This document shows positions 17,040 to 56,580 of a stretch of DNA of 64,000 nt, one piece after another. Both the position numbers and the translations under genes were made by a program. Source of the stretch: Seison nebaliae. Its lineage: Eukaryota. Location: the NCBI GenBank assembly GCA_023231475.1, contig JALJEE010000735.1, positions 1 to 64,000 on the forward strand, written 5' to 3'. Positions within the stretch are counted from its first letter, which is position 1, and each line of letters begins with the position of its first letter. A model generated the notes under the pieces. The model was not told where the DNA came from and did not search any database. It saw only the letters and a program-made list of their open reading frames with translations.

Positions 17040-18353
17040 ATGGATCAATTCGAGTACAGTAACGAGCAATATGGTACAGCAGCATCAGTAGATCAATATG
17101 GATTTGATTCGAATATTGGCGAAAGAGTATTCGGCAACGAAGAAGCCACACAATATGCCAATGAAGAGCAGTATGGTAATATTAATGGCGAATTAAATCA
17201 AATTCAAATGCAACATGTATTTAACAATGCGGAAGCTGGTTTATATGCGGAAAATTCGGCTGCTAATGCAGATGGTAATTGGCAAACTGCCCTTCGTTCC
17301 GAATCAACTTTACAACATCGTATGGATGATGAAAATGAAAAGATTAAACAAATGAATAGCGAACAATTACAATACCAAATAAATTACGATCCAAATCCTC
17401 AAGTAATTAAGAAACAGAACAATGAAAATGTGGAATATAAACAAGAAGTTGCTATTCGGTATCTTCAACCACCAACTCCACCCCCACCTGGTCCAATCAT
17501 TATTAAAGAGGTCAGACCACCACCAGCACCTGCAGCTCCTCCAGTTATTGTACGTCAACGACCTCCAAGACCGTTAACTCCACCTCCAATTGTCGTCCGA
17601 GAACAACCACCAACTCAACCCCAACATTTACCCCCAAAAATTATCACTAAACAATTACCGAGAAATGTACCACCTCCACGACGTGTCATTGTTGAACGAT
17701 TGCCTCCACTACCACCAAAACCAAGAAGTTTAATTGTAGAAAAATGGTTACCCTACAAAGACCAAAAACGACGTGTGGTGTACCAAAGAGCCGCAGTAGA
17801 AAAACCACAAGAAAAGGTAAGAAACTTAATTGTGGAATGGGCCGGACCAAGATCGAAAATTGTGAAAGAAATTCGTAATTTAGGAGTAATGAAAGTAAAC
17901 CCGAAAATTTATCTGGAAAAATATGGTGGAAAATTAGCGAACACAGCATCGGTTCATGGCGCATTATCAAACTTTGGCTTATCGTTGTCCCACAAAGCTC
18001 TCGCACCACCAACTACGGTACTGAACGAAATTCGGCAAACTCCTTCACTCGATTTCCAACGGACACAATCCCAAACTCCAATTCGAAGTCAAACGATGGA
18101 TTTCAATAACTTCTCTTCCTATGGGAAAATGTCACAAGTTCAAAGTCGTCAAGTATCGCGTACGGTAACCCCGGCTGTCTCGAATAATCAGCTTAATGGT
18201 TTAACGAACAGTTATACAAGTGGAACATTGTTTGAAAACGAACAATTCCAAATGGGAGAATTGAAAAATGATGTACGTAATATTGTCAAACGGTATGAAA
18301 TTCCTGGATATCACACATTTGCTGTATTGAATGGTCGTTTGAGTCGAATGTGA
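17040..18353 (+). CDS. Intronless 437-aa protein with Pro-rich conserved core (INYDPNPQ...YLQPPTPPP...RRVIVERLP...EKWLPYK); paralog of 56581-58344
   Basis: Single ORF with raised GC; ~220-aa core aligns by eye with the 587-aa ORF, plus a shared C-terminal motif. Confidence 0.85.
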   Translation: MDQFEYSNEQYGTAASVDQYGFDSNIGERVFGNEEATQYANEEQYGNINGELNQIQMQHVFNNAEAGLYAENSAANADGNWQTALRSESTLQHRMDDENEKIKQMNSEQLQYQINYDPNPQVIKKQNNENVEYKQEVAIRYLQPPTPPPPGPIIIKEVRPPPAPAAPPVIVRQRPPRPLTPPPIVVREQPPTQPQHLPPKIITKQLPRNVPPPRRVIVERLPPLPPKPRSLIVEKWLPYKDQKRRVVYQRAAVEKPQEKVRNLIVEWAGPRSKIVKEIRNLGVMKVNPKIYLEKYGGKLANTASVHGALSNFGLSLSHKALAPPTTVLNEIRQTPSLDFQRTQSQTPIRSQTMDFNNFSSYGKMSQVQSRQVSRTVTPAVSNNQLNGLTNSYTSGTLFENEQFQMGELKNDVRNIVKRYEIPGYHTFAVLNGRLSRM

Positions 18354-18652: not shown

Positions 18653-20037
18653 TTATTGATATGACGTTCGGATCATGGATAAAATATATTGTACTTTTTT
18701 GGAATTGGTCAAAGCGAGTTTCAGTTCAAACACGAGAAATTGAACGATCATATAAGAATAGAGAATGAAAAAAGATTTTTTTGGAGTCATATGAATTGTG
18801 TCCAAGAAAATATTACCGAGACCGGTAAGAAGATTTGAGAATAGAAAGAAGAGTAATCCATTCTTATTCACCAAACGAGACAAATGATCAATTGGTTTAG
18901 AAGAATATGATTTTCTGATCAAATAATAAAGGAAATAATTGAATTGAAAGATTATAAAAACTATCAAAATATAAGAGATGTTACATAATCGTCTACTAGA
19001 TTCGATGAAATGGATAATAGATAAAGAGATGAAGAATAGAATGAAATAAGAGAAATTTAAAATTTGTAAATTATCTTTTTTTGAGAGTGTCAATTCTTTA
19101 AACGAATAAGATAACATATAAAGTGAAACATAACCGAGTAATGATGAAATGCCTTCAATATTTTGAAGAATTAAATTTCCATTTAATCTTTCAATTAAAG
19201 TCGGATTTAAACCATATACACCGAAACTTCTTAAAAGAAACTCATGTGAAAGAATCAGAATGAATGACAAGATGAATTGAAATGGAATTGAATTGATATT
19301 AAAGATTTTCCATAAAATTGTTCCGATCAATTCACCAATGGCCAGCGTAAAGAAGAAATTCCAATGAATTCCATATTCGGTGATATGATTCTGATAATTG
19401 AGGAATTGTATGGAAATCGATCGAATCGTGCCAACGAGTAATAAGAATAAAATTTTGTAAGTAATCCTCGAGAATTTTTGTTTTCGATGAAATGACATTC
19501 CATTAATTAACATGAACATTCCAACACCAACATCCATAAAAGAAATACCGGTCAATTCTGTTTTAATTAATGATCGTGGGAAGACGGTGGGGAAATCGAC
19601 AGCAAAAATGCAAAATGATGTTACTATCAATAAATCGGATCGTAAAGAACGAATAATTTCATTTGGTAACGGTTCATTCTTTATCGACTGATTATTTCGT
19701 AGATAATAAAAGAAGATAATGGAGGACATAACAATAAAATAATGGAGAATGTATTCATTAAGTTTTTCATAGAAAACCATCGAAATTATAATTTTTAATA
19801 GAGTCTTCAAATAACTTTGCAATTTACTAAAACGAATGTTGACATATTATATCCAATTATACAAAGAATAAGAACTAACTAATGTCTGATGATTCGATTG
19901 AGTATCAGTTCCAGAGGCAAATGAGACAACACTGGAATTGCTACCAACAAACAAACTTTGTATAATTCATCTCCACTATTGTGGGAGACGAGAAGTTCTT
20001 TCTCCAATTTCACAGATTGATCAATGACAGTTTTCAT
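18653..20037 (-). CDS. PIGW: GPI inositol acyltransferase PIG-W/GWT1 (exons 20037-19880, 19826-18653)
   Basis: Motifs IFAVDFPTVFPRSLIKTELTGISFMDVGVG, YQNHITEYGIHWNFFFTLA, NIEGISSLLGY, SRRLCN, NGLLFFLFSNLLTGLGN; 53-nt GTT-AG intron 19827-19879 links the N-terminal EKELLVSHNSG exon. Confidence 0.95.
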
Positions 20038-23608: not shown

Positions 23609-24455
23609 ATGCAGAATATGCCGATACATATTGATTTGAATTCAGATATGTCGAAAGCGATCGAAGAAGAAAGATCGAAATTATTTGAGATCAAACAGGA
23701 TTTCGACTCATATAATCAATTCGCAAAGAATGATAAAACTACACCAGCAACCAATTTATTTCAACAGCAATCATTCGCATTACAACAACTCCATCAACAT
23801 CTCCAGGAGAAAAGAAGCAACGAACATAACGAAGAGTCGTCCAAAAAATTTAAACACATCAAATACCTCTTCATCGTTCTCATCATCTTTCTACTCATAC
23901 TCCTTCTTGTTTTCATCATTTGCATCTCTGTGTTGTTCAGTCGTCTGAAAGCGACTGAAAAGGAAAACAAAGTATTCGATCGAATTATTCAAAATATGCA
24001 ATCAAAAATCAGCATAAGTTTTTCTTTTCTATCTAATATTCTAATATGTATTTCCTTCTCTTCTTATTCAACTTTATTCAACTTAAGTTGAAAGTGACGT
24101 CAAAAAGGCTAATAATCGAACACAGATCATTCTCAGTCGGATGCCAACAGATTCTGAAAAACAATATCGAATTGGCAATAAAACGTTGTCAATGTTCACA
24201 TGTTTTCGAGCGAAAAATTTCAAACCAAACCAACTTTTTCCAATGCAACCTTGTACAATCTATGAAAAGGAAATTGGGAAACCAACATCGAAACCCGAAT
24301 CAAATCAAAATATTTATAGAAGGATGCAAGGAGAAAGAGGTCCACAAGGTCCACGAGGACAACGTGGTCCTTCCGGAAAATGCCAATGTAATGAAGAATC
24401 AATTATGCATAATATTATTTCTTTACTACCTGTCAATATCAGTTTATCCAATTAA
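23609..24455 (+). CDS. Type II membrane protein with coiled-coil stalk and short collagen-like segment (exons 23609-24017, 24088-24455; ~258 aa)
   Basis: Hydrophobic helix YLFIVLIIFLLILLLVFIICISVLF after basic residues; 70-nt GTT-AG intron 24018-24087 joins in frame to GERGPQGPRGQRGPSGKCQC. Confidence 0.7.
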
Positions 24456-25025
24456 TATTGGTATCTCGTTGACTATGCGATTGATTAGCATTTCCTCATT
24501 TTATCATTACATCTAATAATTTCAACTGAAACAATTTTCATTCATCTCCATCATCTCGTTATGTACTTTTGAGTCAAACGAGGATTATTATTCACCTGTA
24601 AATATTACACATTAATTATGAAATATCATTCAACGATTCATTTATATTTACTTTCTTCTGTCTGGTATTAAGAGATTACCGAATTCATTTATACCCCAAA
24701 CTTCTAACATAAGTTTTAATAACGAATATTTTCTTTACAGTTCTATCGAAATTTTCTAGGAAATATTTTCGAAGAGAAATACATTATTATAATTTTCCTT
24801 ATTAATGAAATATTGATCAATTTATTGATACGTTACTGTTATTTTAAGGATGATTGAGCACGAGAAGTAATTAAAAGAATAATAAACGCGATCAAGGTTA
24901 ATAACTAATACGTCATATTCCAAATTCAGCACTTTACGATGTTGAATTATCTTCTAACTATTTAGCTTTTTTTAAGATACACTTCACTTACCATAATCTA
25001 ATCAATAATAGTTTTTGTAAAAACC

Positions 25026-27159
25026 ATGACCGAAATATTCGAGTGTGTTCCTAACTTTTCCGAAGGAAAGGATTTGGAAGTTTAAATTTTTTTATTTTTG
25101 TTAATAATTTCTCATGCACTTCTCTTAGACTATCAGCAAATTAAGAAAATGTTTGGAAGAGAATGGAGTTTACGTTGCAGACGTTTCAGCAGAAGAATCA
25201 ACTAATAGATCGGTTTTCACTTTATTTGGTTCATCGGAAGTACTCTTGAAAGGATTAATCGGTGCGGCTCATATAGCAGCCGATTGTATCGATATGAGGA
25301 ATCATAAAGGAGAACATGCTCGTATGGGGGCGATTGATGTATGTCCGTTTATACCTTTGAGTAACGTGACAATGGTCGATTGCATTGAACTTTCGAAGAG
25401 ATTTGGAAAGAAATTATCAGAAGAACTAAATGTTTCAGTTTTCCTTTATGAAGAGAGTCAACCGAAAGAATATAGAAAATCTTTAGCGAAAATTCGTCAA
25501 GGTGAATATGAAGGAATGAAAGAGAAAGTTTTATTATTATTTTTTCGTGATTTTAAGGAAATGTGAATAGATAAAAGAAGATAAATGGAAACCGGATTTC
25601 AATGGTGAAAGTTTTAATGAGAAATGGGGTGCAACAGCTATTGGTGCCAGAGAATTCTTAATTGCTTATAATGTCAACATTTTAAGTACAAAAGAAGAGG
25701 CTCATCGAATTGCTTTAAATCTACGCGAAACCGGAAGGAACGATACTAAAGTTTTTTCTTTTAATACCATATTTAAGTTTTATGAAGAAAATAGCCCGGA
25801 AAATTGAAAAATCTCCGAGGTGTTGGATGGTATTTGGCATCGATAGATATGACTCAAATATCATTCAATCTTACTAATTATCATATAACCGGTTTAGGAG
25901 AGGTATATGATAATTGTCTGGATGAAGCAAAAGTTTTATTTTATAAATAACATTATTGTTTTGGTAGAAAAACCTTCATGTAATCAGAAATTAAATTTAT
26001 CGTTACTCGGATCAGAAATTGTTGGCGTTGTTCCATTACAAGCTATGTTAAATGCAGCCCAATATTTTATAGATAAAGAAGATCTACTAATTCTTTCAAC
26101 AAAAAATAAATTACAACTAGTTAAATTTAATTTAAAAAAAAATATTTTTTATAAATTTTATTAGATCATTAATCGACTCGGATTGGGATCAGATTTCGAT
26201 CCTTCGAAAAAAATTATTGAGTTATAATTCCCTTAATTTCATTTTCTTACCAAATTATCAATGTTTATTGAAGATATTTGGTAAAAAATGAAGAGAAAGA
26301 AAAAGAACAATATCCATATTACCATTCCACATTGTACGAATTCAACGATTTAGTGGGAAAAAGAAGTGCAGTTCCAGGAGGTGGTTCTGTCGCCGCTTAT
26401 TCTGTTTCGCAAGTTATTCTATTCTTTTTTCATATAAATAAATTTTGTAAATTAGGGCGCTAATTTATTATTAATGGCTGCAAGTTTATCCAGAGGTAAT
26501 GTGAAGTTCTATAATCAGGATCAGAAGATTAGACCAATTCTGACAAAATTATATGATTTAAGAGAAAAGATGATTTATTTACCGGATGAAGATTGTAATT
26601 ATTATAATGAGTCTATGGTTCATTCTTTTCATCTTAATAATTTTTCATAAATCTTTTTTTCCTAGAAAACTTTGCGGAATAAATCGTCCACTGAAGAAGA
26701 AAAGTTCATTATAATTCTTCTAATTTTCTAATCTAATTTATTTTGATCTAAAATGATATTCCCTGAATATTTTAAAAGAAGTGAAGCAACAATAAATGCA
26801 GCAGTGATTCCATTACGGGTCATGAAATTGGCCGTCGATACAATGAGCGTCGGTGGCGATCTTCATTCACTTTGTAACTCGAATGTACAATCAGATTATC
26901 TGGTTAGTAAATAAATTAATAACATGAAAATTTGAAGTTTCTTTAGACGGGAATGAAATGTTTGGAAGCTGGCTGTTACGGTGCTTATCAAAATGTTCAA
27001 ATCAATTTGAAAGATGTGGAAGATGTAAGCTTAACAAAGAAAGTTCATTTGACATATGAAACATAAAATATTTAACATATGATTTTGATGTAGATGTTGG
27101 AAGATTCGGAGACATATCTCAAGAAGTCGAAATTACTTCTTGAAACGAACATATATTAG
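25026..27159 (+). CDS. FTCD: Formimidoyltransferase-cyclodeaminase (12 exons)
   Basis: [81 protein letters not shown]; 11 introns with donors at 25080, 25528, 25751, 25933, 26120, 26221, 26413, 26618, 26704, 26903 and 27043, all frame-consistent. Confidence 0.97.
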
Positions 27160-27654
27160 AGAGCATTTTTTCTGTTTGAATATCATAATTCTTTCTAAAT
27201 ATTCTGACAAGAATCAACACTTGAGCATTATAGTTAACGCAAATCGATTCATCGATAACCAGTATGAAAAATAATAAAACTTAAAAAATAATCAGAAGTT
27301 TTTGATGTTTTATAAAACATGTCGTAACCTCTGTCAAATTAGGTATATTTTATAAGAGTACATAAAGCGCTGTAAGATAATTCACAAAGTTAAAATCTAT
27401 GCATTAACAAGGAATTTTCCATAAGCTTTCAATTTTCACTCTCTTGCACGTTTCAAAATTTTAAAACTAAAAACAGGTATATTATTAAATTTAAATTAAG
27501 TTTTAATTTATCATTAAATTAATACAAAAATTATATCAAGAGTGTATTATTAGAAAACTATTTGAGAAAAAGGATTCAGATTTTTTTTGTTTTCAGAAGC
27601 TTTCAAAAGAAAGTTTAAACGAATAAAACTTATAAAAACTTTTATCAGATCGTA

Positions 27655-28237
27655 TTTGTAGACGACAGTTCCCAGCACAAAAATAGGACAGTTCTCAACC
27701 TCAAAACATACTGGCCTGGAATCCGGAAAAATCTGAAAAAATTGTAACCGTACATAAAAATTCTCAAAACAAACAGTTAATGAATTATTATTATTAATCA
27801 ATTATAAGAATATAAAAGCAATTAATAAGAATAAAGCTTTTTCGATATTTAAAATTTTAAATTATTCAGATGAAAAATTAAGAAGATTGTTATTTATTGT
27901 TTGAGATCAAATGGACTGATTGAGAAATGAAATTGAATGTTTGAGAATAGATTTCAACGGAATCTAACTTTCATAAATTATAGTATCGATTCCGACCAAA
28001 AAAGAGGATACATTTCTTGGTTCAAAATTGACTACTAACTTCATCTTCTTTCTCATCTTCCACTCAACAAGAAAACTAACATTGTAAGTCAAAAACTATC
28101 CTAATTATGAATTAATAACTCTCCTTTGGAGGATTTTTATGTACGGTTAATACTTTTCTACTTCAATTTTCCGTATATTTTGAGGTTGAGAACTGTCCGA
28201 ACGAATAAAAAACAAGTTGAGAACTGTCGTCTACAAA
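27655..28237. mobile_element. MITE-like non-autonomous element, ~580 bp, with ~110-bp imperfect terminal inverted repeats
   Basis: tttgtagacgacagttc (27655-27671) is the exact reverse complement of 28221-28237; ggacagttctcaacctcaaaacatac (27686-27711) pairs with 28173-28198 with 1 mismatch; aaccgtacataaaaa pairs with 28134-28148; AT-rich non-coding interior. Confidence 0.8.
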
Positions 28238-28273
28238 ATTCTTATACAAATTTACAATCTGTCCGATTACCGT

Positions 28274-28529
28274 TAAATAAATTAATAACATGAAAATTTG
28301 AAGTTTCTTTAGATGGAAATGAAATGTTTGGAAGTTGGCTGTTACAGTGCTTATCAAAATGTTCAAATAAATTTGAAAGATGTGGAAGATGTAAGTATAA
28401 CAAAGAAAGTTCATTTGACATATGAAACATAAAATATTTAACATATGGTTTTGATGTAGATGTTGGAAGATTCGGAGACATATCTAAAGAAGTCGAAATT
28501 ACATCTTGAAACGAACATATATCAGAGAG
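28274..28529 (+). pseudogene. FTCD: 256-bp direct duplicate of the FTCD 3' end (26908-27163) with introns retained
   Basis: Colinear with no indels and about 11 substitutions by hand count; the FTCD stop TAG is changed to CAG; no upstream exons. Confidence 0.92.
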
Positions 28530-30250
28530 TATCGTATGGTTTCGCTGATACTTCAATCAATAGTTGAGTATATAATTTCTGATTATTTCGAGCAACTAAT
28601 CGATAACGAACACTACTTAATCCATCCCATTCTAATCGTTCGCGATCCGTTTGTAATAGTTTCAAACTAAATCGATTTTAACAGAATAAAAATATTTTAA
28701 TAATGAGAATACAAATAATAACTTGTAATCACCTAGAGGTGCTTTTCTTTTTTGATGAATTAACATATGATATTGGGCATAACTTGAAGATCGTTCGATA
28801 TTTAAATTATTTTCGTCTAAACGATAAAAGAAGTCGTCATCTAATTTCGGTTAGAACATTTATCATTAATTAAAAGTCATAGAGAAATAATGAACCCTCA
28901 GCACCCCAAGCCCAATATAAATTAGAGAATCCGTTTGCGTATAAAAAATGAATTGCTGGAACTACCAATACACCTCCAATTAATTCCTTATAAACTAATC
29001 TATTTTTGAAGTAATGAAAAAAAATGAAAATATATGTAACCTAACTTCATTCCTAAAGTATCTACTTCAACAGCAAGATGTTTTGGTTGATAACTACAAT
29101 TATAAACCAGGCGATCATCCAATGCAATCATATCAACATCATGGAATATAAAGCAATCAGACAATTGTAAATCATTTTCATGTTCATATTTCCAAATTTC
29201 TAAAAATCCTGCGTTCATTACAATTCCTTTATTAAATTCATGCTTTGATGTCTGATGACAAGGAAATTGAATGACATTTCTAAAAAAAAACTAAATAACT
29301 TGTTCACATACGTAAATTACATAGTTGATTTTATGTAAGGACAAAATGTAATGAAGGCGAAATAACAATTTTTTCAATTGATTGTTACGATTTCGATATG
29401 GAATTATTACTGCAACCTTGATAAAGATAAAGATTATTGAAAATTTCGAAAAATAAACTTTAGTTGGGGAAAAACAGTTTTTCGGTCTTCCTATACCCCA
29501 ATCAAAGTCATTTGTCTTGACAAATTGACTAGAAGTTACGTCTACTTTTTGTATTAAACTTCGATATTCAGTTTTTAATGCATTATGTCGTCTAAAACGC
29601 TTTGGATCACGAAAATATCGACGAAGTTCATTATATAAAATCGTTGGCAATATGTTATCTAAAAATCTTTGAAATATTTAAAGAAAATTGAAAAATAAGT
29701 AACATTTGGCAGATGTATTCATTTTACACATATTATAACTAAGAAATGCATTCACATCTTTTGAACGTTGCACATCACATGCACTTTTATTGTACGTGCA
29801 TCTCTCGAAATACGTTCTTAATCTTGAAACAGAACGTAACAAATTGAAGGAAAAATATCGTCGATCATCATCTCTCAATTCATCTAGAACAAATTTTTCG
29901 ATTGATGACAAATTCTTTTCGTACTCCGAAAGTAGTCGTTGAGTAAAGGTAAATCTTGATTCACTGTGACAAGCAATATTTATCAACCGCCAATCATTCA
30001 ATCTTTTATTAACATATCTCGATTGTGCTCGAATGAGATTATCATAAACCAATTGAGTTTTATTAAAGAATTGGAAACATATCCCAATTGAGGAACAACA
30101 GACAAAACATAACGCACTATAAAATATAAAGAGTGAGAAACATATTTTCTTCCGTCTTTCTTTTTCTTTTACTATTCAAAAAATTCAAATTACGTTAGAA
30201 GAAGTTATTTCAAAAAATAAACTTCTAAGTTTTGTATAATGAGGAACCAT
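28522..30250 (-). CDS. GT7-family beta-1,4-galactosyl/N-acetylgalactosaminyltransferase (8 exons)
   Basis: Type II TM anchor, VAVIIPYRNR, FNKGIVMNAGFLE, CFIFHDVDM, YKELIGGV, NGFSNLYWAWGAEDDDF, DGLSSVRY; 7 short GTT-AG introns; stop TGA at 28524-28522. Confidence 0.93.
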
Positions 30251-31389
30251 TGTTCTATTTTTTTACTCTATTGATGCTTGAAGTAAATTAAATAATCAGT
30301 ATGGACGTTGACACATACGTTGCTGGAAAAAACTTACGTTAATACCATATTTACGCTATGTACAATAAACGAAGTATATTAATAGTAAAGATAATAATGA
30401 TAGATAGGAAGATAAAGTATATTAAATAATAATAATAAGCATGTAAGAATTTTGGAACTTATTTTCAGTTATAAAATACTTTTCATCTTTTCAATGTTTT
30501 TTAAAAGAAATGTTCGAGAGATTATTTATGTTTATATAAAAAAAAAATTATCTATTTTCTCTTTATCTTCATCCAACATTGAATGTTTTATTATTTTTTC
30601 GATTAATATCTGATTAATATTTATTTTGATTTAGATGTTTCAATCATAGTGTTTTCCCTATCCTTATATTTTGGCACCTCATTTTATTCATTTCGGACAG
30701 TTCGTTATTCTCATATAAGGGTGCCGAAGCCACCGTATACCAGATGTTAAGATTAACATAATTTAACTAACAATGGTAAGTTTTTAATAAAATAAACTGT
30801 TTAGTTTAAAGAGAAACAAAATTCTCATAACGCATGCCACTGGATAGAGAAAACAAATTACTTGTGAAAACAGTAAAAATACAAAAAAATCTTAAATTTA
30901 CATATATTTTTTAAATTTTACTTCCTATAAGTTATCTCGTTTTCTTTTTAGTTTACACTGCGGGGATTTGTTGTATTAATAAAAAAATAAAATAAAATAA
31001 AATAAATCAGCCTTCATTAACGGCGTGTGGGGCAAATTAGGAAGACTTCATCATGATTATTTTATCACGTGTGTTTATTTATCCAAAATTATAGATTAAA
31101 TATTAAAGAAATAATGTAACAAAAAATTATTCAAAATTTTAGAATTATTAAGAGCTATTATTTTATTAATTTATTGGAGAACAGTGGAAATTTTATTGAA
31201 AAATTCGGCCAATTTCAATGAAAAAAATGACAAGGAGGTTGAGTAAGAAGTTCTGCAATTCTTCATTCTCAAATTTTCATCTTTTTCAATTTCTTTCTTA
31301 CGTTACACCCTTTTTTCTTACCTTATTTTTAAATAATTTATAATTAAACTCTTCTAAATTAAAAAATTTGGCAATTGAATTTTCAAAAG

Positions 31390-32044: not shown

Positions 32045-33195
32045 TTAAAAATACCACGGAATGGGTATATCATGCAGTAGTAAAACCACCATAATTTGCA
32101 CAAGAATGAAAACAGGTACACTAACAACAAACAGACCAAAACCAAACATACCAGTTGCAAAATAATAAGCTATAACCGTATAAGCTAGTGCAAGAATTTG
32201 GCTCCCCGCAGCGTATCTAACCCGTGCTCTATGATCTAATTGAAGTCTTGGCGGATGTTGAGCAGGTTCAGGAGGTTCCATTAAAGCTTTAAAATCTCTA
32301 AGTACTCTTCCAAGTAAGCCTTGAATATAACGTACTTTTTGTCTCCATTCTTCCATTTCGTTGTCTAAGCTGTAGCGGTCTAATAAATATATAAGAATAA
32401 ATAGCATTATCTAAAGTTAGCTAACTTGAACCCATATTGGTTCGGTCAAGTACATCTATTTTCAAGAGAATAGGTTATACTAATTTGAGAAAGATTAACA
32501 TTCTTCATCATTAAACTGCTTCCATTTACGATCAATTCCTAGGAGATAAAACACATAGAACAACTACTATAAATTTAATGTAAACTTTCAGCTTCATTTA
32601 TAATTTCCATTACTAAAAACAAAAATATGTATTAAAATATATAATTTTAATATAATCTCAAAAAAATACTATACTGCTAGAATCTTGAGCAGCATATTTA
32701 GCCATATCCTTAGGTCCTACTCCAAAGTGCTTACGAAGCGCTACAAAACAACATCCTTAGAATAATAAGTAGATTGAAATTTAACAATATATAAGGTACA
32801 TCATACATTCTTTTCCTTCTTGAAAATTTTTAAAAACGGGTCTCGGATCTTCAAGTTTCGGTATAAATGGAATACCCCCATTACAATAAGGACATGGAAC
32901 AAAGGGATATATTACATTCGGTGGTAAAGGCAGTATTTTAGACCGATGTTGAACCCAATTTTGGATACATTTAACACAAAATTTGTGGCGACATGGACTT
33001 ATTTGAAATAAAGGTTCTGGCTCTGGATTTTCACTAGTTGTCTCCCAGCAAATACTACAAATATCTTCTTCAGTAAATTGCGTTAATTTTCCGCATATCA
33101 ATATTTCTTCAGTTTTTTCTTCATAGTATTTAAAAGCTATTAATATGGAATTTTTATTAAATAATTCTTGATAATGAAATCTAACTTTCTTTCAT
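32045..33195 (-). CDS. C3HC4 RING-finger protein with C-terminal transmembrane helices (putative membrane E3 ligase); 5' end uncertain
   Basis: CSICWE...CRHKFCVKC...CPYC in ORF 32781-33101, linked through several small phase-1 exons to ORF 32045-32407, which ends in two hydrophobic helices. Confidence 0.7.
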
Positions 33196-42089: not shown

Positions 42090-42162
42090 CAATTTGTGAT
42101 AATAAATTCTAATTAATCTGAATATTTTTCTATAATTACTGTACTGGATATAGTACAGTAAA

Positions 42163-45100
42163 ATGGAAACAAAGAAAGATGACTATCGAATAGAACATGG
42201 AGTTCAAATTGATCCCAATGTCATATCATTAACACAATGCCAAAAGGGTAAAAATTATATGGTACGAATAACCTTATTGAATTTGGATCAGAAACCTAAA
42301 AAAATTTCAGTGATCAAATCGAATGATCCAAATTGGTTGTTAAGTGCAAAGCAACCAATAGTCTTCGAAATCACTCCTAAAAGCGAAGAGTCATTGTTTT
42401 ACGAATATAAATTTTCGTCGAAACATAATCCCCATAACACCAGTCCATATCGACCATTAAGTGAAGGTGTTCTTGAAGTGTTAATCAATAAAAGTACAGC
42501 AAAAATTCCTTATTCGATTTATGGTGAATGTGCAGAAATCATATTTGACGGTGCATCTCTTTCTTTCTCTGAACTTCTAACATTATTTTTAGAAATGAAT
42601 TTCACTTTTGATTTATTGTTAAATGATCCGAATGTATTTCTCCAAACAAATCTGAAAAATGTTGGTCGATACAAAGCTAACATTGAATTCCGACCGAAAG
42701 ATCCTCATATTTTTGTGAATATGAAGAAAAGTGTTGCTACTCCTGGAGAATCATTACCATTCGAAATTGGTGTTGATGTTACTAACGAAATTTCAATTAC
42801 CACAGGAATAAAGTTTCTCCATAAATTTTTTCATTCTAAATACAACAAATATTTTTTTCAGTGTCTTCGTTAACGATATGTTATACCCAAAACCGATACT
42901 TGTTACGGCCGAAGTGAAAATTTGTAGTTTAGATCTGATATCTAAGAATACTCAACAAAAAATTGAACGAATCGACTTTAGTTCCGTTTATTATGGTTGT
43001 GACTATTTTCGTGAAGCATTGATCTTCAACAAGTCGAAATTTCCCATACAATTCTTGATTTTTGCTGGTACAACAAATGATGGACAACAAGATGTTAAAA
43101 TTTTCAGTTTTTCCATAATCACAATAATTTCAGAATACGGAGGATGAAGATGGTGATTTTAAAGGTGCTAATAAGAATGATCGAGTTTTCGGAGCGTTTC
43201 CAACCCAAGGTGAATTACGACCATTCGAGAAGAGGAATGTGGTATTCCGTTTTTCCCCACGAATGAAAGAGCCTGCCATCGGTTTTAAATCGACAGAAAT
43301 TGTACCGTTCGAGAAAGAACATTCGATGATTATTTATATTGTTGATGTTGTTAGATGGACACAATCGACTAGTATGTCAGATCCCGATAGTGCAGCGGCA
43401 AAATTTTGTTGTGTCACATTAACTGGTAATGTACATCCAGTTAATTTATCATTCGAACCGGATAATGCAATTGAATTTGGTGAAGTATTAGTTGGACAAG
43501 GAAAGAAGAAAGAATGCGAAGTACTCAATTTGTCTCGTTCAATGACTTTAAATATTAAATTTCAAAAATTGGCAAATTTCCATGTATGTCCGGAAATGGC
43601 ACAGATTAAACCACTTTCCAAACAACCATTCATTGTCATATTTACCCCCAAACAAATTGGAACGTTCAATTATTCGATTGGAATGGATGTGTTAGGACCA
43701 ATTGTAAAATCGGATTATTTTAATGCTCAACGTGGACCGTTCTATACGAGACATATCGAAGTAAATGCGGAAAGTATGCAGAAAGTAGATTATGAGAAAC
43801 TCGACGAAAAGTTCAATAAAATTGTAGAAGCAACGAAATATAAATATCCTAAGAAGTTAGAATCATTTATGATTCATCAATATTTTTATTTACTTTAGAG
43901 AAGCGAAAGAATTATACGACCCAATGTTAGAGATTTTTCACTGTTTCCATAGTAATTTTGGAATTTTTCTTTGATTTTTATGATAGTCCGAAAAATGTGA
44001 AAAGTTCTGAAAAATTATACAAAATTCGAAAAGAATTAGAATTGGAAGATTATGAGACTAATGCAATGGTAAGTGAAAGATACGCTTTGAATAAAGAAGA
44101 AAGACAAAAAGTAAAACAACATCGTAAATTGTATGATATTGAGAAAATGTCGAGACATGTGGAGAAACCACGAGACGTGATAACAGACCCGTCAAAAATC
44201 GAAGATACATTAACTCAATCGTCAAGTCTACTAAAAAGTTTCTTCATTTCATCTCAAATCTTTATAATAATTAATGAATTGAAGAGAAATCGTTATTCCC
44301 GAAAGAATGGCAATTAGTGAGTGCTAGAAATATGATTGCCGAAAGAAATGATCTTGAACAACTTACCACAGTAACATCGTGTCCAATGTATCCGAGAACA
44401 CAATTGCAGAAACAAAATACATCGGTAAAACTGAATCCTATCGAATCGTTACAGACAGTTTTTTGTTAGTCAATTTTCTCAAATGATGTTTCGCATAATT
44501 TCCTTCAGATCCAGAAACTCTCAATTTTGGAATTGTTCAGGTAAAATCATCATGTCGATTAAATTTATATGCATGTAATCAATTGGACATTCATATTTAT
44601 GCACAAATGGAAGTTTCTTTTCTTTTCATACGATTATTGTATAAATCTTTTAGACGGATATTGAAGAACTGAAACTATCTTTTCCTCGAAAGCAGGTCAT
44701 TCCTCCGAAAAGTAAAGCAATCTTCCCAATTTGCTTCCAAAGTGAAACGAAACAACATTTCCAACGGTTCATCTCTTAATTATCTTTTGATTAATTAAAA
44801 TGGTTTTTCGACAATTTATTTAGAGATATTAAATTTACAATAAATAAATCTTCCACTCGCACTATAAGAGTTACTGCCGAAGTGGCATCGGGCACATTAA
44901 ACTTATATCCTAAACATCATCTAATTTTAGGTACAACATGTGCCTCCAGTTGTCTACCGAACATAATCTCTCAATTCCATGGAATGGTAACATTAACCAA
45001 TCCGCAAGGTATACCAATGACTTTCCGATGGGAACGTGTATCGTCCGATGTTGGTGAACAATACTTTCAAGATTTTCATGAATCTGATTATCAAAGACAG

Positions 45101-48100
45101 AAAAATTACCACACAAAACAAGATAGAGGACATGAGATTGTGGAAGAAGATAATACTCAAATAGGTATCGATCCACCAGAAGGAGTTGTAGCAGGAAACG
45201 CAAGTATAATGTGTGAAGTCATTTGGAAATTGGATTACAATCATGTCACAGATAAGTATTTTATGGTTCTCTTTGCAAATGGCAGTCATAAGATCATGAA
45301 AGTTTCACTTTCTTTCACTTTAGCCAACATAACTTTTGTGGATCGTTCCATCGACTTTGGCATCATACCAACACACTTGCCATCTGAACGAACATTCTAC
45401 TTAGCTAACAAAAGTGATTGTTATGCGATATATGATATCGGAATGGATCCGAATGCTAAAGGAATTAATGTCAGTCCAAAGGTTGGTATGATAGCACCCG
45501 AATCATTTAGACCGATAACAGTAAGTGTGCAAATGCAAAAGGAAAATAAATTTGAAGTATTGCTAACCGTAAAATCGAGAACTGAAGCTGGTGGTACGAA
45601 GTTGAGAGTGAGTGGTTCAGCGTCAAATCGTTTATGTGAAATAGATCAACCGAAATTACTATTTGGATCTATATTTGCGAGAACTCGATCAACAATCCCT
45701 TTCAGATTATACAACGATACATCATGTATGAATACGGTGGAAATATCTTTTAGTCGTCAATCAGATTTCTGGATCACATTCTCATCAGACGTCTTAATGC
45801 AACAAAGATATTTGGGTAATTTCGATATACGACTTTTGGGCGATACCGCTTGTGATATGAATGATAATTTATTAATAAAAGATGAATATCCAACAGCTGA
45901 AAATCGTCGTTGCTTTCTCATCGTACCGAAACAAACGTCTATTGAATTAGTGTTGAATATTTATCCAGTTGAAGTAGCCACTTATGATTTCCCACTACCA
46001 ATGTTAGTGAATACACTCCAGAAACTTTCTTTGAGTGATTTAGATGTACAAAATTCAATTCCGTCTCCAACACATCGAACAGCAGAAGATATGTCTGTGA
46101 AAACGTTTTCGAAATCAACCAGTGATCTGGATCCTGTTGCTGAGAAATCGTCGTTCTCTTCTCAAATGAAACCACCAAAGAAAGTTGCAGTGATAAAGCG
46201 AATAGGAACGGTAGAGATATCGAACGATAGTCCTATTCGACAACCGAAATATACTGATGAATGTGGTTATTCATGGGAACCGTTGACATTTGAAGAAATC
46301 AGATTATTAGCCAAACAAAGACCAACTCCTTTAAGGAAGCAAAATAATGTTCATACAAGTTCAACGGAAGGAGATGAAAATCGATTACGTTTAAATAATT
46401 CGAATGAAGATCCGAAGAAAGGAATGGATAGTGCCGATACAAATATTCCATGGAGTAATGATGATCCGGCAGGAAAAACAATTTCGGCAACGGTTGTTCG
46501 ACCGATATTAGATATCAGTGAAGAATCTTTTACTTTCCATACATCGAGATTAATTCAAAATTTAGTCGAATCATCAACTTTCCTTAATTGTCGATCATTC
46601 AGTTTAACAAATCGATCAAAAAATGAAGTTCATTGGATGATCGATATGTCATATGATCCTGTTCATCCGAATATATTATACGATGGTGTATTTTCCATCA
46701 TTCATGGTAATATGGTCGGTTTCCCATCAGATCGAACCATCAAAGGACCAAGTGGATATTTATACGAAGGTGAAACAATTCCATTAAAAATTATTTTTTC
46801 TCCAAAATTACCTGGCACATATCAGGCAAAATTACCAGTAATTGTGAATAAAACTTCTGTTTATTCTCATTTAATATTATACGGAGAAATGCAGACACTT
46901 CGATTATCCAGTACACCATCAGATCTCAAATTTGAAACGGTTCCTTTAAACACCAAAATTAGCCAAACAATCAAGATCGAAGCATATGGTTATACGGGAA
47001 ATACGAAGTTATTTGTTAAAGTACCTTCGATCAATTCTTCGGATGAATCTGACGATGAAACGATACAACCACTATCATGTAAATTCGTTAATGGTAATGT
47101 TATTTCAGTTGATTCCGATACTCCCAATTTTAACATACCTGTCAGTTTGGAATTAGAAATTGAGTTCGTTTCCGATCGACCAATTTCTTTCGTTGCACCA
47201 CTTTACATTTATGATGAGAATAAAGTATCATACGAATTACCAGTTTCAGGATCGGCAGATAATTCAATGTTTTCGTCTTGTCGTTATTTAATGAATCACA
47301 ATTTCCATTATATGATCCATACTCTCCCGTTGACGGCTGAAGAGGGAGATAGTAATGGCTGTGGAACTAAATATTATTTGGAACCTATGCTAATGAGTTC
47401 TGATCAAATCATTAAGAAAGTTAATGAATATTTCGATTGTATGGGAGTTACTAAAACGATCGAAAAGAATACAATGGATAGTAGAGTGAATAAAGATCGA
47501 TTGAGACATTTCGGTTCAGAAAAATTGCAACAAAAGATCCACCACAACTATACTGAAGTTATTCGACATTCACAATTAAATCGCGCTTCTCATACTACTA
47601 TCGGAAAAGTCGATGATGCTGTTACGCTTTACAAACGAAGATTTTCGAAAGTACTTAAAATTTTACAAGTGTCACCCAGTTCCATACATTTGAGCACCAC
47701 AAATTGTATATTATCGTCAATGTTAACGAATGATGATTTTGGTAGGAAAAATTATGAACAATATTGTCGACTATTGAATGGATTACAAAGTTGGTTACGA
47801 CATTTCGGTTGGTCGAAATTTGCATATTCTCTCCATATACCCACATCATTCCAGAAAAACATAACCGGTTTTGGAGTTGCATATAAGAATAAGAAATTAC
47901 ATCGAGAACAGCCACCTCCAAGTAGTTTTACGATTTTTGAGATGATTGAAAATTTAAGTGGAATAAGAATACCAAATACATCAAGTATGCCGTCACAATA
48001 TGATGATAAGTTAACTCGAGCTAAATATCATTATTATCAACGGAAATTATTAATCGATTTCCTCAATGCCAATGGTGGATTAGTATCTCATATTAATCGA

Positions 48101-51100
48101 GAAATTTTGCTGGATTATCATGATTATGTAACTTTAATGCACTATTGGAAGAAGAAACAATCATATCCGAAATTATATTCAGTTGAAACGGAAGCAACCT
48201 TCACACCGGTTGAAATTCGGAAAGTTGGTTATCAATCATATAATCGATTGATGAATGATAGGACAATTTTGAATTCAAAACAACATACACTTCTTTGTTT
48301 AGATGCATGGATGACAATTCTTCTTCAATTAATTAAAATATTAGTCATATCTCGAATCGATGAATTATCATTTAAAACAGCAATTCAATCATTGGATGAA
48401 ATGCCGATGTCGATTTATCGTTCGGAAATTCCAACAAAGAAAGATATTGAAAGTAGTATGGTTCATGTGGAATCCAAATTAAAGAAATTACCACCACAAA
48501 ATTGTCGAATTTGTCTTAATCCTGTTTCATCAAATTTTTACTCAACATCTGAAAGATATTTATTGAAATGGATAAATTATGTTTATAACCGATATTTTGA
48601 AGCATTCTTTTTTCTTATTAATCACAACATGATTGCCCAACCTGGTGGGACGAAGGATAACGAAATGCTTTGTCTCAAACATGGCGAACAATTCGAAAAG
48701 AATATCAGCACAAATACACTCAATATCAAACAAGTAAGACGAAGAATATCAACTGAATCGTCACCGGAAAATCGCCAAAATGTTTTTAAAAAATACATTA
48801 GTGATAAAAGTGAGAAACTTCTACCGAATTTCATACCAGACACGATAAATAATTTTGCGGAAGATTTCAAAGATGGAATTGTAATTGGAATAATTTTATC
48901 AGCCTATTTCCCAATAATTATCGATCCGTTAATGCAAATGTATCCTAATCCTGTTTCGAGAGAAGAAAGAAAAAGTAATTGTAATCGAATAATTGATGCA
49001 TTAAAATTCCTGGGTTTAAATTTCGATATATCACCAGATGACATCGAACATTCCGATCCAATTATGATGTGTCTATTCTTCAGTTATTTGTTTCATCATC
49101 TTCCAAAAATGGTTCAACCGAAAAGTCTCGAGTTCAGTTGTGCATTAGGCGAATTTGCTATACAAACAATTCAATTGAGTAATCTGGCGAATAAGCCACT
49201 TCAATACAATGTTGCAATCGTTTTATTGAATGAAAGAAAAAGTAGAAAGAATGCTTACTCTGAAATTCTGGATGAAGTAACTGGTCAGCAGAAGAAAGGA
49301 CAGGACAGATCTCGAACAAGTATGAAAGCTGATTTGGAAAGTAATGTCTTCACTGTAAGTTCCACCAACATTACCATCCAACCAAATTCTAATGCCTCAT
49401 TGACAGTGACGTATAAAGGCCACATCGTCAGTAGTGAGAAAGCATTATTATTATTATATTGTAAGAAACAATATCCTCATCAATCGTCCAATATGATTTA
49501 TTTAATCACTTCTCGTACTCAACATGTAGCACCAAATGTTAGTAGTAAACAATTAATTCTTTATCATTTTCTTAAGTTTTTTTTGTTTTTTATTTCTCAA
49601 TAATCTGTTTATTTTTAACTTATGCTTTACTTTTTTTTGCTTCTGTTCTTAGGGAGATAGTGTAGCTGCTCAAACGGGAGTTCTTTTTTTTTTATTTCAT
49701 TTTCTATTTTAATATATATATAATTCCGTTCATTTTATTAAGCGTTATATCAAAGTGCAAACACCATTATACGAACCATATACGATACCGATTGAAGTTC
49801 GATATACAGCGAGACAAGGTGGAATTTACAATCTGAATTTACTTGAACGAATTGGAGATGACCCACTGCAACACTTTGAACCCATTAAAGAAGTGTCACG
49901 GTTACTTTTCAATTATAATTCCTTTATTTTCATTTAATCTAAACACAAATTTAGTGAAGGTAGAAGAGCTCTTCAAAAAATTATGAAAAGAAAACGGAAT
50001 ATATTGAATAAAATTGCTCAAATGGATCTACCAGAAGCTACACGAGACACGCCTGTCAAATATCGAACATTCTTCACTAAATCGGATTCTGTCTTCATTC
50101 CCAAATTAGAACCAGAAAAAGGAAGGAAGAAACAGAAAAAACAAGTGGAAATCAAGAAACAAAAACGGCATAAGAATATTTTAAGTGTTGTCGTTAATAT
50201 TACTTACTTACCGTTAACGATAGAGAAACGACATTGTACAATTGTTTTCCGTAATGAATATTTGGGTGAATTTACATATGAATTGGAAGGAATGCCTTTA
50301 TTGCCTCTACCACAACCATTCTCTTTGAAATATTTGGTTGCCTCTCCAGCTCCAACGGATCATTCAGCAAAAGATGATAATTCTTCCATGCGTTATGAGT
50401 ATAATCGAACTTCAGAAAGCGAAATTGGACGTCAAAATAGTGATAATCGTTTAACTGTACATACAGCAGGAAATACTAACGAAAATTCCTCAACTCGCAA
50501 GGCGGATGATAAAGTGACAACTGAAGTAAAATTTTTGGATCATAATGATGATGACAATAGTAGTCTGTCACATATTGAAAGTAATAACAAAATAAGTAGA
50601 ACTTCCAGAAGCAACACTAAAAGTTTACGTCGATCCCTTACACATCCCACTCCAAGTGCGGATCCTGGAAATACGGCTTCTAACTTAGCTGTCACATCGC
50701 CTATCCATACAAATTCATATACATATTATAATATTAATGTCAGTCCAACATATGATGCATTATCTGAAATGAATTTAAATTTGAATGCCAATCCAAAACC
50801 ATCAGCCCATCGGATATCAGACAATGTTATGTCGTCGCAGCATGTTGAAGTGAAAAAATTGAAAATTAACCCGGAAAAACCGATGATAAAAAATTATTCG
50901 CCACTAAGTGAAGAAAGTGTGATGATCTCTAACGTGAGACAAACAGTGACTATACCCGGAATCGACTTTCCACCAGAACAAGTCGAAAAGATATTGAAGA
51001 ATTTTAATCAGGAAACGATAAACAAATTAGGAATTGGAAAGAATAAGTATGCGGGACAAGTACCAACTCATATCATTTCAAAATCACACCAACAGAAATT

Positions 51101-54100
51101 GGCGCCAATTAAGTGCATTGAATTGCGGGAGAAAGTGGAAACTTCAAATATTCAGAGTGTGTTCGATAAATATTTGGAACAGGACGATGATGTTGGTCAA
51201 AAGCTTATTCGTTTAACTTCCGACTCACTTAATAAGAAACCGGAAAAGAAGACATTTGTTAATCAAGAGATTCCAACGGTTAAAGGTCCACCCGATGTCA
51301 GACATTTCCAAATATTATGTTCTACTCAACAAAAATTGAAAGCATTCATTCCCATCTATATTTATAATCAAGCGAAACATGACGCTCTCAATCACATGGT
51401 CTTGATGGTTATTCTTTTCAATTTCGAACCATTTCTATAATTTTATTTGTAGAATGAAGCCGAATTCTCCACAACAAGTAAAAATATCATTTTCGAGAAA
51501 ATTATGATTGATGGTTGTTCCAAAAAGAACCCAGCGTTTGAACAAGTTAAATTTACACCAAATTTTTTAACTGTTCGATCGTCTCTTTTTAGTCACTAAA
51601 AGTTTTCCAACCGGTTCCCTATCAAGTATTCTGTACAGTACCAGATATTATAAAAGTGCCGGAAACCGTGAAATTGACAGATTATGGTTTAGAATCATTA
51701 TATGTTGTGAAGGAAATGAATTTATTTGTATAGAAATTGTGAAAGATGAGATGTTTTTCTTTCTACCGGTTGAAATTCAACCCATCAATTTTACGACTAA
51801 TAAATCGGAGAAACAAATTTATGCTGGAATTTGTTTAGTTTCTCCTTACGATTTTCGGGCATATAGTTTGGAGTTATCATTTAATGAGCAAGAGGATGAT
51901 GAAATTTATACGTATTACGTGGAAATGACAAGTATTATAAATAAACCGATATGTCAATTTATACCGATAGTTATTATAATTATTTGCTAAATTAGAACAA
52001 TTATATCCATCCAAATATTTTCTAGAGGAATAATGAGGAGCATAAATTGATATTAAAATGTTCTTTGGAAGGTGAATGTTTCTCTGGGGAGACCACTCAA
52101 TTCATCGTTCCACCATTGAAAATCTTGCAATATCCTCTAACATTTACACCAACTGCCCATCGTGAATATAAAGGTACATTAACCTTCAAAAATATCAACA
52201 GAAATTTTAAACAAATCTTCCATCTAATCGGATTGGGTGAGCAAATACCTCCGTTTGATATTATAACGATCGATGCACAAGCAAGATCAATTGGAATTGG
52301 AAATGTTCTTCTAAAGAATACTACTCATCAACCAATTTACTATAAAGTTCATTCAACACTCAAATATTTGAGTGGTCCATCAACCTGTTGTGTGGCGCCA
52401 AAGAAATCGAAGTCATATAATTTCAATTACTTCCCATTAGTATCGGGGAATGATCGTGGCAAACTAATTTTCACAGTAACTGATGGAAAATCCAAGTTTT
52501 GTCCTATACTTATTTACTTTATTGCTACTAATCCGTAATATCAGGAAGGAAAATTTTACAGACAAATTACCAATTGCAACTATGGCGAATAACCAAGGAG
52601 AATACATCTGGTGTGATATCATATTTAATATCGATATGCCACAACCCGAACAAACTATTGACATTAACACAGTAGTGGGAGTTAGTAACATATTTTTCTT
52701 CGGATTTGCAATAAAGAATTCTCAAGACTGTAACGACGATAGAATTGAAAATAACAAATCCGATTAAAACGCCAGTGGTGTTGGAAGCCCATTTTAAATC
52801 TCCACCTAAATTTAAAGAAGCTGTTTTGGCTAAAAATAGTAAGAAGGACGTAACATATTCAAGAGCAATATTTTTTATCGGTGCTCCAAAACTCAAAATT
52901 GCAGCATGTGCTAAAGCTACTTACGAGTTTACGTTTAACGCTTATGTAGCAGGTGTGGACTATGGGAAATTAATATTCTCACATCCTGATATTGGGGAAT
53001 TTTGGTTTTCGTTGGTTTGTCGAGTGACGAATCCCGAAGTAAAACAATTTGAGGATTTCGTTCCAGTCAATGTAGGATGTCCAGTTTTGAAACAAATAAC
53101 GTTGTACAATCCAACTGAATCTCATACACCTTATCACATCTCTCTGACGAATGGGAGAGATTTTCAAATTGTACCTCACATTAACGTGCTAAAGAGTTTG
53201 ATAGTTAAATCGGGTAATTTATTGCCAGAAAAATTATCAATTTATACGGAAAAATTGAGGAAATCGTCGGCGCAAGAATTTAAGGAAACTCCGTCAACCA
53301 TCGTCAAAATAGCGAATCCAACTGAATCACACGTATTATTAGCACCATGGTCTACCTATCAATTAAGTATCTACTTTTTACCATCTTTTCATAAAGAAGC
53401 TTTAATTCCCGGAAAATTAACTATTACTAATGCGAAAGTCTATTTCTGCATCCTTTTGTCTGATTGATAAAATTTATATCCTTTTTAGGTGGGTAAATTT
53501 GAATATGAATTGAATGGAGTGTTAACTGAAAATTATTTCGAAAAATTGAAAGCAAAGGAAACGATCGAAGTAGCGTTGAAAGCTCCTGTTGAGGAAACAG
53601 TTGAAGGTGGATTAGTTTATCAAAACCCAACTGATACTGATTTGGCCATCGAAGTACGAACGAGCAGTATTAAAAATCAATCAGATGAAACTACATTCTC
53701 GGTTGATACGGTAAAAGATAATGTTAATTTATTTCATTTATTCAATTTTAATTCGTAATGATTAATAGGTGAGGAAATTTGATAAGAAAATTATACCAAT
53801 TCTTTTTACTCCTATGAATACTCAACAATATAGAATTCGAGTAGAAATTGTTGCTAAATCGATAGACGGGTTAATATTATTTATTAAATTTCTTCAAATA
53901 TAATTGGGATTAATTTCAATTAGAGTTAGTTATAGGTCAAAATTTACGAAGCCATTTCGAACATCCCAATCGAGTAGAAGATCAAGTTTTGGATTGAGCA
54001 AGAAAGGATCCGTCAGTTATTTACAAAGTAATTTAACCACGAAAAATCCATATTTGGCTGGTGATATGAATTTTAATAATAATACTACTAATAAGAAAGT

Positions 54101-55680: not shown

Positions 55681-56580
55681 ATCAGAAAGATAATGATCAT
55701 TAATATTAACGATTTGTGATCGACATGATTGTTTAATCAATAAATAAAACTCATCTCTTTCTGCCATTATTGAATGTTGTCTAATCAATTTTAACTTTGA
55801 ATTTCTCCCTAAATTAACATGACTTTCGAATGACTCGTAAAACATCTCAAAAGATTGAGATAATATTGATATCTGTATAAATCATCAGTTGAAATGTAAT
55901 TTGCAAAGTGGATAAAAGAGAAAATTTTAATGTTTATTTCAATAATTCACTCACAAACGTCTCACCAAAAAATGAGCATTTTAAAACTAAATTTACTCTT
56001 CCAACTCCAATTCTCTCTACTTTCTTGGAAATCTAATGGCTACTCAAGCGTAAGAAGAAAGTAGATTTGGTTTAAGTAATTGAATATTGCTGTTGAGCAA
56101 CCAATAGATAACAATTATATTAGATGACATGATGAATTGTTGAATAAAAACGCTCATTAATGATTAGTAAATCTGTCTCTATTAATAAGTGAAATCTTAA
56201 CACAAACATTCATCGAAACAATGAATTAAATTCATTTGGACATTGATCAAAGTCCGAGATATCATTTCCTCATATCCCTTCGATTTTGCATTGAAAGTGT
56301 ATGTTTAGATAAGAAAAGAAAACCTTCGTCATAATTTGATTGGAAAGAATTAGTAGTTTAATCGAAAATAATTTACTCATCCTGTCATTTCAACATACAA
56401 CACGCTTGTTGTTATTAGTTTCTCACTGATAATGATCTATGTTTTAATGATGTTAAGAAAGATAATTATAGGATGGAGGGTCATCCTTAACTAATATTTA
56501 TAGGAACCAGGAAAATCATCATACAATTGAATTTGTTTCATCTTTAGTATTCTATTGTAGTTCTCCAACTTTAACAAAAC

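Follow-up and report, generated by a model that had tools for sequence, protein, structure and literature searches.

The closest described parallel to the locus considered here is insertion with long target duplication, in which an insert of less than 20 kb lies between direct repeats of more than 30 bp, and a relative carries a single repeat (PMC2853133, Furuta, Abe and Kobayashi 2010). The repeats listed there have lengths between 46 and about 420 bp, and in two of the cases the 3' ends of genes are overlapped. Transposed genes in Arabidopsis have likewise been reported as inserts between direct repeats of genic sequence that correspond to the target site at the orthologous position (PMC2869330, Woodhouse et al. 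2010), and in work on tandem duplications the fill-in of staggered breaks with 3' overhangs is described as duplicating the sequence between the nicks (PMC8355091, Schimmel et al. 2021). A second body of work concerns convergent genes of animals that overlap in antiparallel fashion at their 3' ends: such overlaps are reported to be lineage-specific, the genes remaining neighbours after the overlap has gone (PMC2330155, PMC2151771). In these two accounts the overlaps are mostly between UTRs and come or go when a gene changes its terminal exon or poly(A) site, and overlaps of coding sequence in animals are said to be strongly selected against (PMC2330155).

In the window (the whole 64,000-nucleotide stretch of Seison nebaliae DNA that was analysed), two convergent genes are separated by a pair of 256-bp direct repeats with an insert of 1,110 bp between them, an arrangement like that of insertion with long target duplication. 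That class was described for bacterial restriction-modification (RM) genes, with no other mobile element (PMC2853133), whereas the present locus belongs to an animal nuclear genome, there are spliceosomal introns in the repeat, and the insert contains no gene but does contain a MITE-like element. In the way it works the locus resembles insertion with long target duplication, yet it falls outside the RM-bearing class. For Arabidopsis, where a gene has been inserted, the proposal is recombination with a circle (PMC2869330); the present insert is non-coding, and a search for its donor, confined to the window, found none. Finally, the accounts of animal UTR overlaps differ from what is suggested here, namely that coding ends shared 4 nt and that this overlap was lost by duplication of the junction. 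A literature search, the scope of which left out most subscription papers, turned up no account of this locus, nor of any animal in which duplication had resolved a stop-codon overlap.

Two convergent genes and their duplicated junction

The left-hand gene, FTCD (25026..27159, plus strand), has 12 exons, specifies 527 aa and ends in a TAG at 27157-27159. Its model is letter-identical to an NCBI protein (P0003), and one of its exons matches S. nebaliae NCBI SNEBB_003061. Matches to Pfam FTCD or FTCD_C fall on exons 3, 4, 7, 8, 10 and 11, with scores on single exons that exceed the curated cut-off (37-48 bits for FTCD and 25.7-27.4 bits for FTCD_C), and exon 11 also matches the FTCD of PDB 1tt9. 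The right-hand gene, of the GT7 family (28522..30250, minus strand), has 8 exons, specifies 461 aa and ends in a TGA at 28524-28522; its model is likewise letter-identical to an NCBI protein (P0001), and one exon is a 100% match to S. nebaliae NCBI SNEBB_003062. The GT7 product scores above the curated cut-offs of Glyco_transf_7N (113.9 bits) and Glyco_transf_7C (68.1 bits), and matches B4GALT1 structures with an E value of 2e-45. Judged by these matches, the two genes are a formiminotransferase-cyclodeaminase gene and a beta-1,4-galactosyltransferase-like gene. All 18 modelled introns in the two genes are of 41-75 nt. The two NCBI proteins bear consecutive locus tags, with no NCBI-annotated gene between them.

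The end of FTCD is present twice. Positions 26908-27163 recur at 28274-28529 as an ungapped direct repeat with an offset of 1366, identical at 245 of 256 positions (95.7%, 11 differences), and this is the only duplication of such quality in the window (self-BLAST E 8e-116). These figures bear out the preliminary description, made from the letters alone, in which the last 256 bp of FTCD recurred, at about 96% identity by hand count, 1366 bp downstream. That description took the copy to be simply the last part of the gene; this holds for the FTCD end, but the limits need correction, because the repeat begins 5 nt inside intron 10, includes most of that intron and runs on for 4 nt past the stop codon. 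Copy 1 (26908..27163, plus strand), the functional 3' end of FTCD, thus comprises part of intron 10, exon 11 (26947-27042), intron 11, exon 12 (27094-27159) and the 4 nt beyond. Copy 2 (28274..28529, plus strand) is likely a decaying relic of the same end, with six amino-acid changes relative to copy 1 in addition to the change of TAG to CAG. On its minus strand it carries the last two codons of GT7 and the stop (only 8 nt of GT7 coding sequence, the stop included), followed by what is presumed to be the start of the GT7 3' UTR.

At the junction itself, copy 1 reads TATTAGAGAG, giving the FTCD TAG at 27157-27159 and, on the other strand, a TAA at 27158-27156. Copy 2 reads TATCAGAGAG, giving CAG in place of the FTCD stop and an antisense TGA at 28524-28522, which is the stop of GT7. 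The letters read in both copies thus confirm the earlier observation that TTAG in FTCD corresponds to TCAG in the copy, with loss of the FTCD stop and continued use of the antisense stop by GT7, and the gene model that matches the NCBI protein places the final codons of GT7 and its stop at the right end of copy 2, as had been proposed. When the two copies are superimposed, the coding regions of FTCD and GT7 have four letters in common, the TTAG at 27156..27159, which is the FTCD stop on the plus strand and, on the minus strand, would be the former GT7 stop (TAA), and is likely to represent an ancestral 4-nt coding overlap.

Today the coding sequence of FTCD stops within copy 1 and that of GT7 within copy 2; both stop codons and the insert are seen directly. 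We consider, with a probability of about 70%, that the genes once overlapped tail to tail by 4 nt, and that 256 bp of their junction were then duplicated, 1,110 bp of unrelated DNA coming to lie between the copies. This layout would follow if the junction had suffered a staggered break whose two sides were filled in and then linked by captured DNA; alternatively, a tandem duplication might have come first, and the insertion into its joint later. Duplications at rearrangement breakpoints in Drosophila have reportedly arisen by the fill-in of offset breaks, which duplicates the sequence between the nicks. Staggered-break fill-in is also the route inferred for the present locus; capture of 1.1 kb is not among the events described in the abstract of PMC8355091. 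The rearrangement would have been survivable in that each gene retained an intact coding end: the insert likely supplied FTCD with a new poly(A) site, GT7 would have retained, as a copy, its old UTR antisense to FTCD, and copy 2, released from the constraint of encoding FTCD, would then have decayed neutrally.

The insert and the support for its surroundings

The 1,110 bp between the copies (27164..28273) has no homology to local genes or to the last exon of GT7. The preliminary description took no account of this insert or of the 583-bp mobile element that it contains; it is not plain spacer. Its left part (27164..27654, plus strand; 491 bp, GC 23%) is unique, AT-rich and at single-copy depth in bins 27128-27515, and is presumed, from its position, to be the new FTCD 3' UTR. 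There is an AATAAA at 27273, although poly(A) hexamers are expected by chance in DNA of 75% AT and were not weighed as evidence. The right part is mostly occupied by a MITE/foldback-like non-coding element of 583 bp (27655..28237), which ends 36 nt from copy 2. This element has perfect outer and inner inverted repeats of 17 and 21 bp, respectively (the left and right termini matching at 17/17 positions), together with a repeated subterminal motif, and is predicted to fold with a z score of -8.9, none of 20 shuffles doing as well. It is multicopy, as judged from a depth of up to about 14-fold over that of its flanks and from many variant contigs with loose ends. The combination of terminal inverted repeats on a short element and dispersed multiple copies matches the traits of MITEs; a search for a target-site duplication at the outer ends gave 3-4 nt AT-rich candidates only, none of them clear.

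Other features sought in and around the insert were few. A single open reading frame of at least 70 codons was found in it, an 83-codon stop-to-stop frame; Rfam gave 0 matches over 26800-28700; a tandem repeat search returned a trivial AT array only; and microhomology was looked for at the insert breakpoints but not found. A decayed GT7 last exon behind the FTCD stop, plausible by eye, was rejected when 105 of 1000 shuffles scored as well, and further homology searches behind the FTCD stop or to the left of the copies likewise gave nothing that stood out from shuffles (shuffles as good in 240/500, 147/1000 and 72/1000 cases; as good a score from 343 of 1694 tiles of the window in the same remnant and left-flank searches). 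With no GT7 remnant behind the FTCD stop, and with the unique part of the insert at single-copy depth, a layout of copy, insert and copy fits.

How far can the assembled order be trusted? Contigs of four public runs (2 samples, 2 studies, one of them possibly the source of the window) were aligned to 24800-30600. All four junctions (FTCD/copy 1, copy 1/insert, insert/copy 2 and copy 2/GT7), as well as both 144-nt inner variants, were found on contigs with 0 differences and at single-copy depth in two studies, the depth of the junction contigs equalling that of unique flanks (about 27-30 in run X1 and 12-18 in X2, a run flagged as probably of DNA). Both copies of the repeat are therefore real. 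A merged heterozygote would give half depth, so the full depth of the junctions in both studies disfavours the haplotype-merging artefact that had been raised in the preliminary description as one of the outcomes that would refute it. Two apparent joints, 26608>30214 and 30015>27686, were set aside as chance matches with short sides (20 letters in the first).

A residual version of the same concern is that both copies exist, but that the two halves of the insert come from two element copies at different loci, or that haplotypes were nevertheless merged. Among the contigs listed, none spans the whole locus or crosses the high-copy centre of the element (27894-27945) with 31 nt to spare at each end, so that the adjacency of the insert halves rests on assembly; the published S. 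nebaliae assembly is reported to be a short-read MEGAHIT one (PMC8351084), and the element has no clear target-site duplication. We nevertheless regard a misjoin as improbable, because the unbridged stretch, of about 50 nt, is below ordinary read length, the termini of the element agree at 17/17 positions, the two NCBI proteins have consecutive locus tags, and all four junctions are at full depth.

A joined junction in a divergent lineage

A pooled sample of S. nebaliae has been reported to contain two lineages at about 9:1 (PMC8351084), and on this account contigs from four runs of one sample (S1) were aligned to 28246-29060 at 80% likeness. Divergent contigs were present in runs X1, X3 and X5, and absent from X4. 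They are of two types, here called alpha and beta, with depths under 5 and 6-7 times shallower than those of the main contigs. Two alpha contigs (X1 record 5, 821 nt, depth 4.45, covering 28308-28589 with 49 differences and 7 gaps; X3 record 11, 759 nt, depth 3.4, covering 28308-28620 with 54 differences and 7 gaps) run unbroken from FTCD exon 11 across the stop site into the last exon of GT7. The comparison excludes the left 449-537 nt of these contigs, their continuity with the rest of FTCD (exon 10) being assumed. At 28523, all four divergent contigs that cover the site have T, two of the four spanning both coding ends; the other three letters of TTAG show no difference among the 40 of 76 differences listed.

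Alpha differs from the window by about 17%, and the two copies differ from each other by 4.3%, from which it appears that the FTCD-GT7 junction is older than the duplication. All listed gaps in alpha fall within the 51-nt intron, and 9 of the 11 listed differences in its GT7 exon are synonymous (P 4e-5), a pattern that indicates coding constraint on both reading frames. It is thus likely that the 4-nt TTAG overlap preceded the duplication, and the suggestion that the genes were once tail to tail with interlocked stops, and were separated only later by duplication, is supported by the alpha contigs with T at 28523. The contrary position would be that there never was an overlap: a chance 9-of-11 microhomology would have linked a copy of the FTCD end to the stop that GT7 already had, C at 28523 being original. 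This would agree with the end of the repeat homology 4-7 nt past the FTCD stop (a position outside what the mechanism proposed above accounts for), with the lack of a GT7 remnant behind FTCD, and with the situation at the other convergent gene pairs in the window, none of the three overlapping (gaps of about 46-240, 299 and 618 nt, with ends judged by eye). However, contigs diverged by 17% are already joined, with T at 28523 in 4/4, so that the junction predates a duplication only 4% old; a microhomology joint is largely refuted by the alpha contigs, unless these are chimeric, and we find it very hard to credit.

The beta contigs (X3 record 15 and X5 record 31) contain the last exon of GT7, with 11 lineage differences in common with alpha as well as T at 28523, and extend into GT7 exons further upstream. 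Loose ends that overlap by 9 letters suggest a link to a contig carrying exon 6; of the 10 differences listed for that contig, 9 are synonymous. Beta has four private changes in 72 nt (two synonymous and two not), one of them in the LYTQ motif common to B4GALT1. On the FTCD side beta has decayed: a hand count in fixed register gives agreement at 19 of the 30 letters shown (P about 1e-4), and two in-frame stops come 11 and 10 codons too soon. No private change of alpha is visible in 60 nt of the GT7 exon, which would make alpha unlike a neutral remnant of the same age. Our reading of these sequences is that alpha is the intact overlapped locus and beta an older duplicate of GT7, although beta may alternatively be an allele, a third lineage or a case of parallel unlinking. 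A search for the short GT7 fragments of the divergent lineage in a protein collection gave 38 candidates, none significant.

As an empty-site comparison, the two alpha contigs join the repeat to GT7 with the copy-1 state, with the qualifications that the FTCD exon 10 side lies outside the alignment and that a second version of the junction is present in the lineage. Beta hints at a second duplication of the FTCD-GT7 junction, and, as the divergent lineage has at least two versions of that junction, the course of events may have been less simple than outlined here; gene conversion, for its part, could give the copies a younger appearance than their true age.

Does this amount to repeated, selected escape from a coding overlap? 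It is conceivable, if doubtful, that duplication freed the genes from the TTAG interlock on two occasions, once in each of two cryptic sister lineages, recently in that of the window (through the 256-bp duplication and insert) and earlier in the divergent lineage (through copying of GT7 together with an FTCD tail). The broader adaptive proposition, which we hold to be unlikely, is that the overlap was costly through polymerase collision, mRNA duplex formation and frozen stop codons, and that separation was selected, and/or that the copied UTR of GT7 regulates FTCD in trans. For the first of these, one may point to the reported selection against coding overlaps in animals (PMC2330155) and to beta, in which GT7's last exon accompanies a more decayed FTCD tail, as if the junction had been duplicated or released twice; yet the joined form persists in the divergent lineage, so that overlap appears to be tolerated, and two events at one site may reflect fragility rather than selection. 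The second is considered below.

Probable decay of copy 2 and its complementarity to FTCD

The divergent lineage also gives a direction to most of the changes between the copies. Alpha bears the copy-1 base at 8 of the 11 differing sites (six amino-acid changes, the stop loss and an intron change) and does not bear it at the remaining three, which are synonymous. All seven protein-changing differences, the stop loss included, arose on copy 2, where a G>S change hits a glycine common to the 1tt9 FTCD chain. If the three synonymous changes arose on copy 1, the ratio of protein-changing to synonymous differences is 7:0 for copy 2 and 0:3 for copy 1 (p 0.008); if they arose on copy 2, its ratio of 7:3 is near the site ratio of 128:31. 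Under either assignment copy 1 is constrained, and copy 2 appears free. Within copy 2 the exons are not better conserved than the introns (differences at 10/162 and 1/90 sites, respectively; Fisher p 0.10), and, judged from these 11 differences, it is likely to be a neutrally drifting relic. For GT7 the change of its stop from TAA to TGA is silent; had it occurred while the genes still overlapped, it would have destroyed the FTCD stop.

Might copy 2 still be used on the plus strand, either as alternative last exons of FTCD (giving an end 15 residues longer) or through a 68-codon reading frame starting from an ATG gained at 28313? Its splice sites and frame are intact, an ACG has become that ATG, and the frame is open for 15 codons past the lost stop. 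Such use would need a 1.4-kb intron extending past the AATAAA, against the 41-75 nt of the modelled introns; 7/7 protein-changing differences lie on copy 2; and the consecutive locus tags leave no NCBI-annotated gene between FTCD and GT7. We therefore attach very little weight to it.

The remaining question is that of antisense RNA. Antisense complementarity between copy 2 and FTCD exons 11-12 extends over 158 nt, with 9 mismatches and with perfect runs of 22, 26 and 26 nt, and 3 of the 11 mismatches would be G:U pairs. On GT7's strand AATAAA is absent from copy 2, the first being at 27898, inside the element. The preliminary description had presented the complementarity of the GT7 3' UTR to FTCD as a consequence of the duplication. 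The complementarity stands, but the duplication was not its cause, since the sequence would already have been 100% antisense when the genes overlapped; as the sequences are best read, what the duplication did was to abolish the complementarity in the reciprocal direction and to leave the other behind as a decaying remnant.

A regulatory role in trans, the second half of the adaptive proposition, could draw on these perfect runs and G:U pairs, and on yeast, in which duplexes of convergent mRNAs are reported to regulate genes (PMC6993858). On the other hand, all the protein-changing differences are on copy 2, and its exons, being no better conserved than its introns, do not suggest that pairing with FTCD mRNA has been selected for. 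In Seisonidea and Acanthocephala, moreover, piRNAs are reported to be present and RdRP to be absent, which would limit siRNA amplification (PMC12256650). Any dsRNA potential is probably a leftover without selected function.

No new molecular system is implied. What we have described is probably a real and well-polarised loss of a 4-nt coding overlap through duplication of the junction, by a type of rearrangement that is already known. Its value lies in the circumstances: coding overlaps are reported to be rare in animals, and the route of their loss usually has to be conjectured from species that are distant, whereas here the joined and the separated states can both be sampled within one nominal species, giving a before-and-after view of overlap loss in which the lifting of constraint is visible base by base, the stop codon included. 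The locus also permits a direct test of whether un-overlapping alters expression, termination or antisense RNA.

Introns and antisense frame at the FTCD–GT7 locus

The gene models of FTCD and the beta-1,4-galactosyltransferase-like gene GT7 (25026-30250) together contain 18 introns, each 41-75 nt long, and the intron donor is unusually fixed, GTT opening each of the 17 for which sequence was printed. In copy 2, the apparent relic of the FTCD 3' end that contains the GT7 stop, an ATG has been gained and the stop lost on the plus strand (28313-28570); the 68-codon frame predicted here from the sequence would be spliceable, and antisense to the last GT7 codons.

A divergent-lineage version of GT7

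Low-depth contigs of a divergent lineage, from two public sequencing runs of one sample (X3 record 15 and X5 record 31), carry a GT7 version placed at 28519-28672, in which the FTCD tail has decayed and the LYTQ motif, common to B4GALT1, shows a T>I replacement. This version may be a paralogue, an allele or a third lineage.

Other genes and repeats in the window

Upstream of FTCD, a plus-strand gene (23609-24456) has a short collagen-like Gly-X-Y run and a predicted transmembrane stretch, with nothing above the cut-off in Pfam. Other genes include GWT1 (18653-19846, minus), a RING protein (near 32781-33191, minus), a large ciliary gene resembling CFAP47, which encodes Ig-like and CH domains (42154-55700, plus), and a class II tRNA synthetase without introns (61705-63249, plus). 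There is also a tight convergent pair (1070-5997, plus; 6044-9890, minus), its stops about 46-240 nt apart as judged by eye; its long ORFs (1568 and 1002 codons) had no Pfam match. A second foldback-like structure (13759-14177) has tandem subrepeats of 30-61 nt each within its inverted arms; its motif differs from that of the element in the insert between the two copies of the FTCD 3' end (27164..28273).

Two long single-ORF genes, of 439 and 589 codons, both contain proline-rich repeats and have in common a 406-nt stretch (17368-17771 and 57157-57561; 70% identity). Neither matched Pfam, and the pair possibly represents a lineage-specific family of structural proteins.
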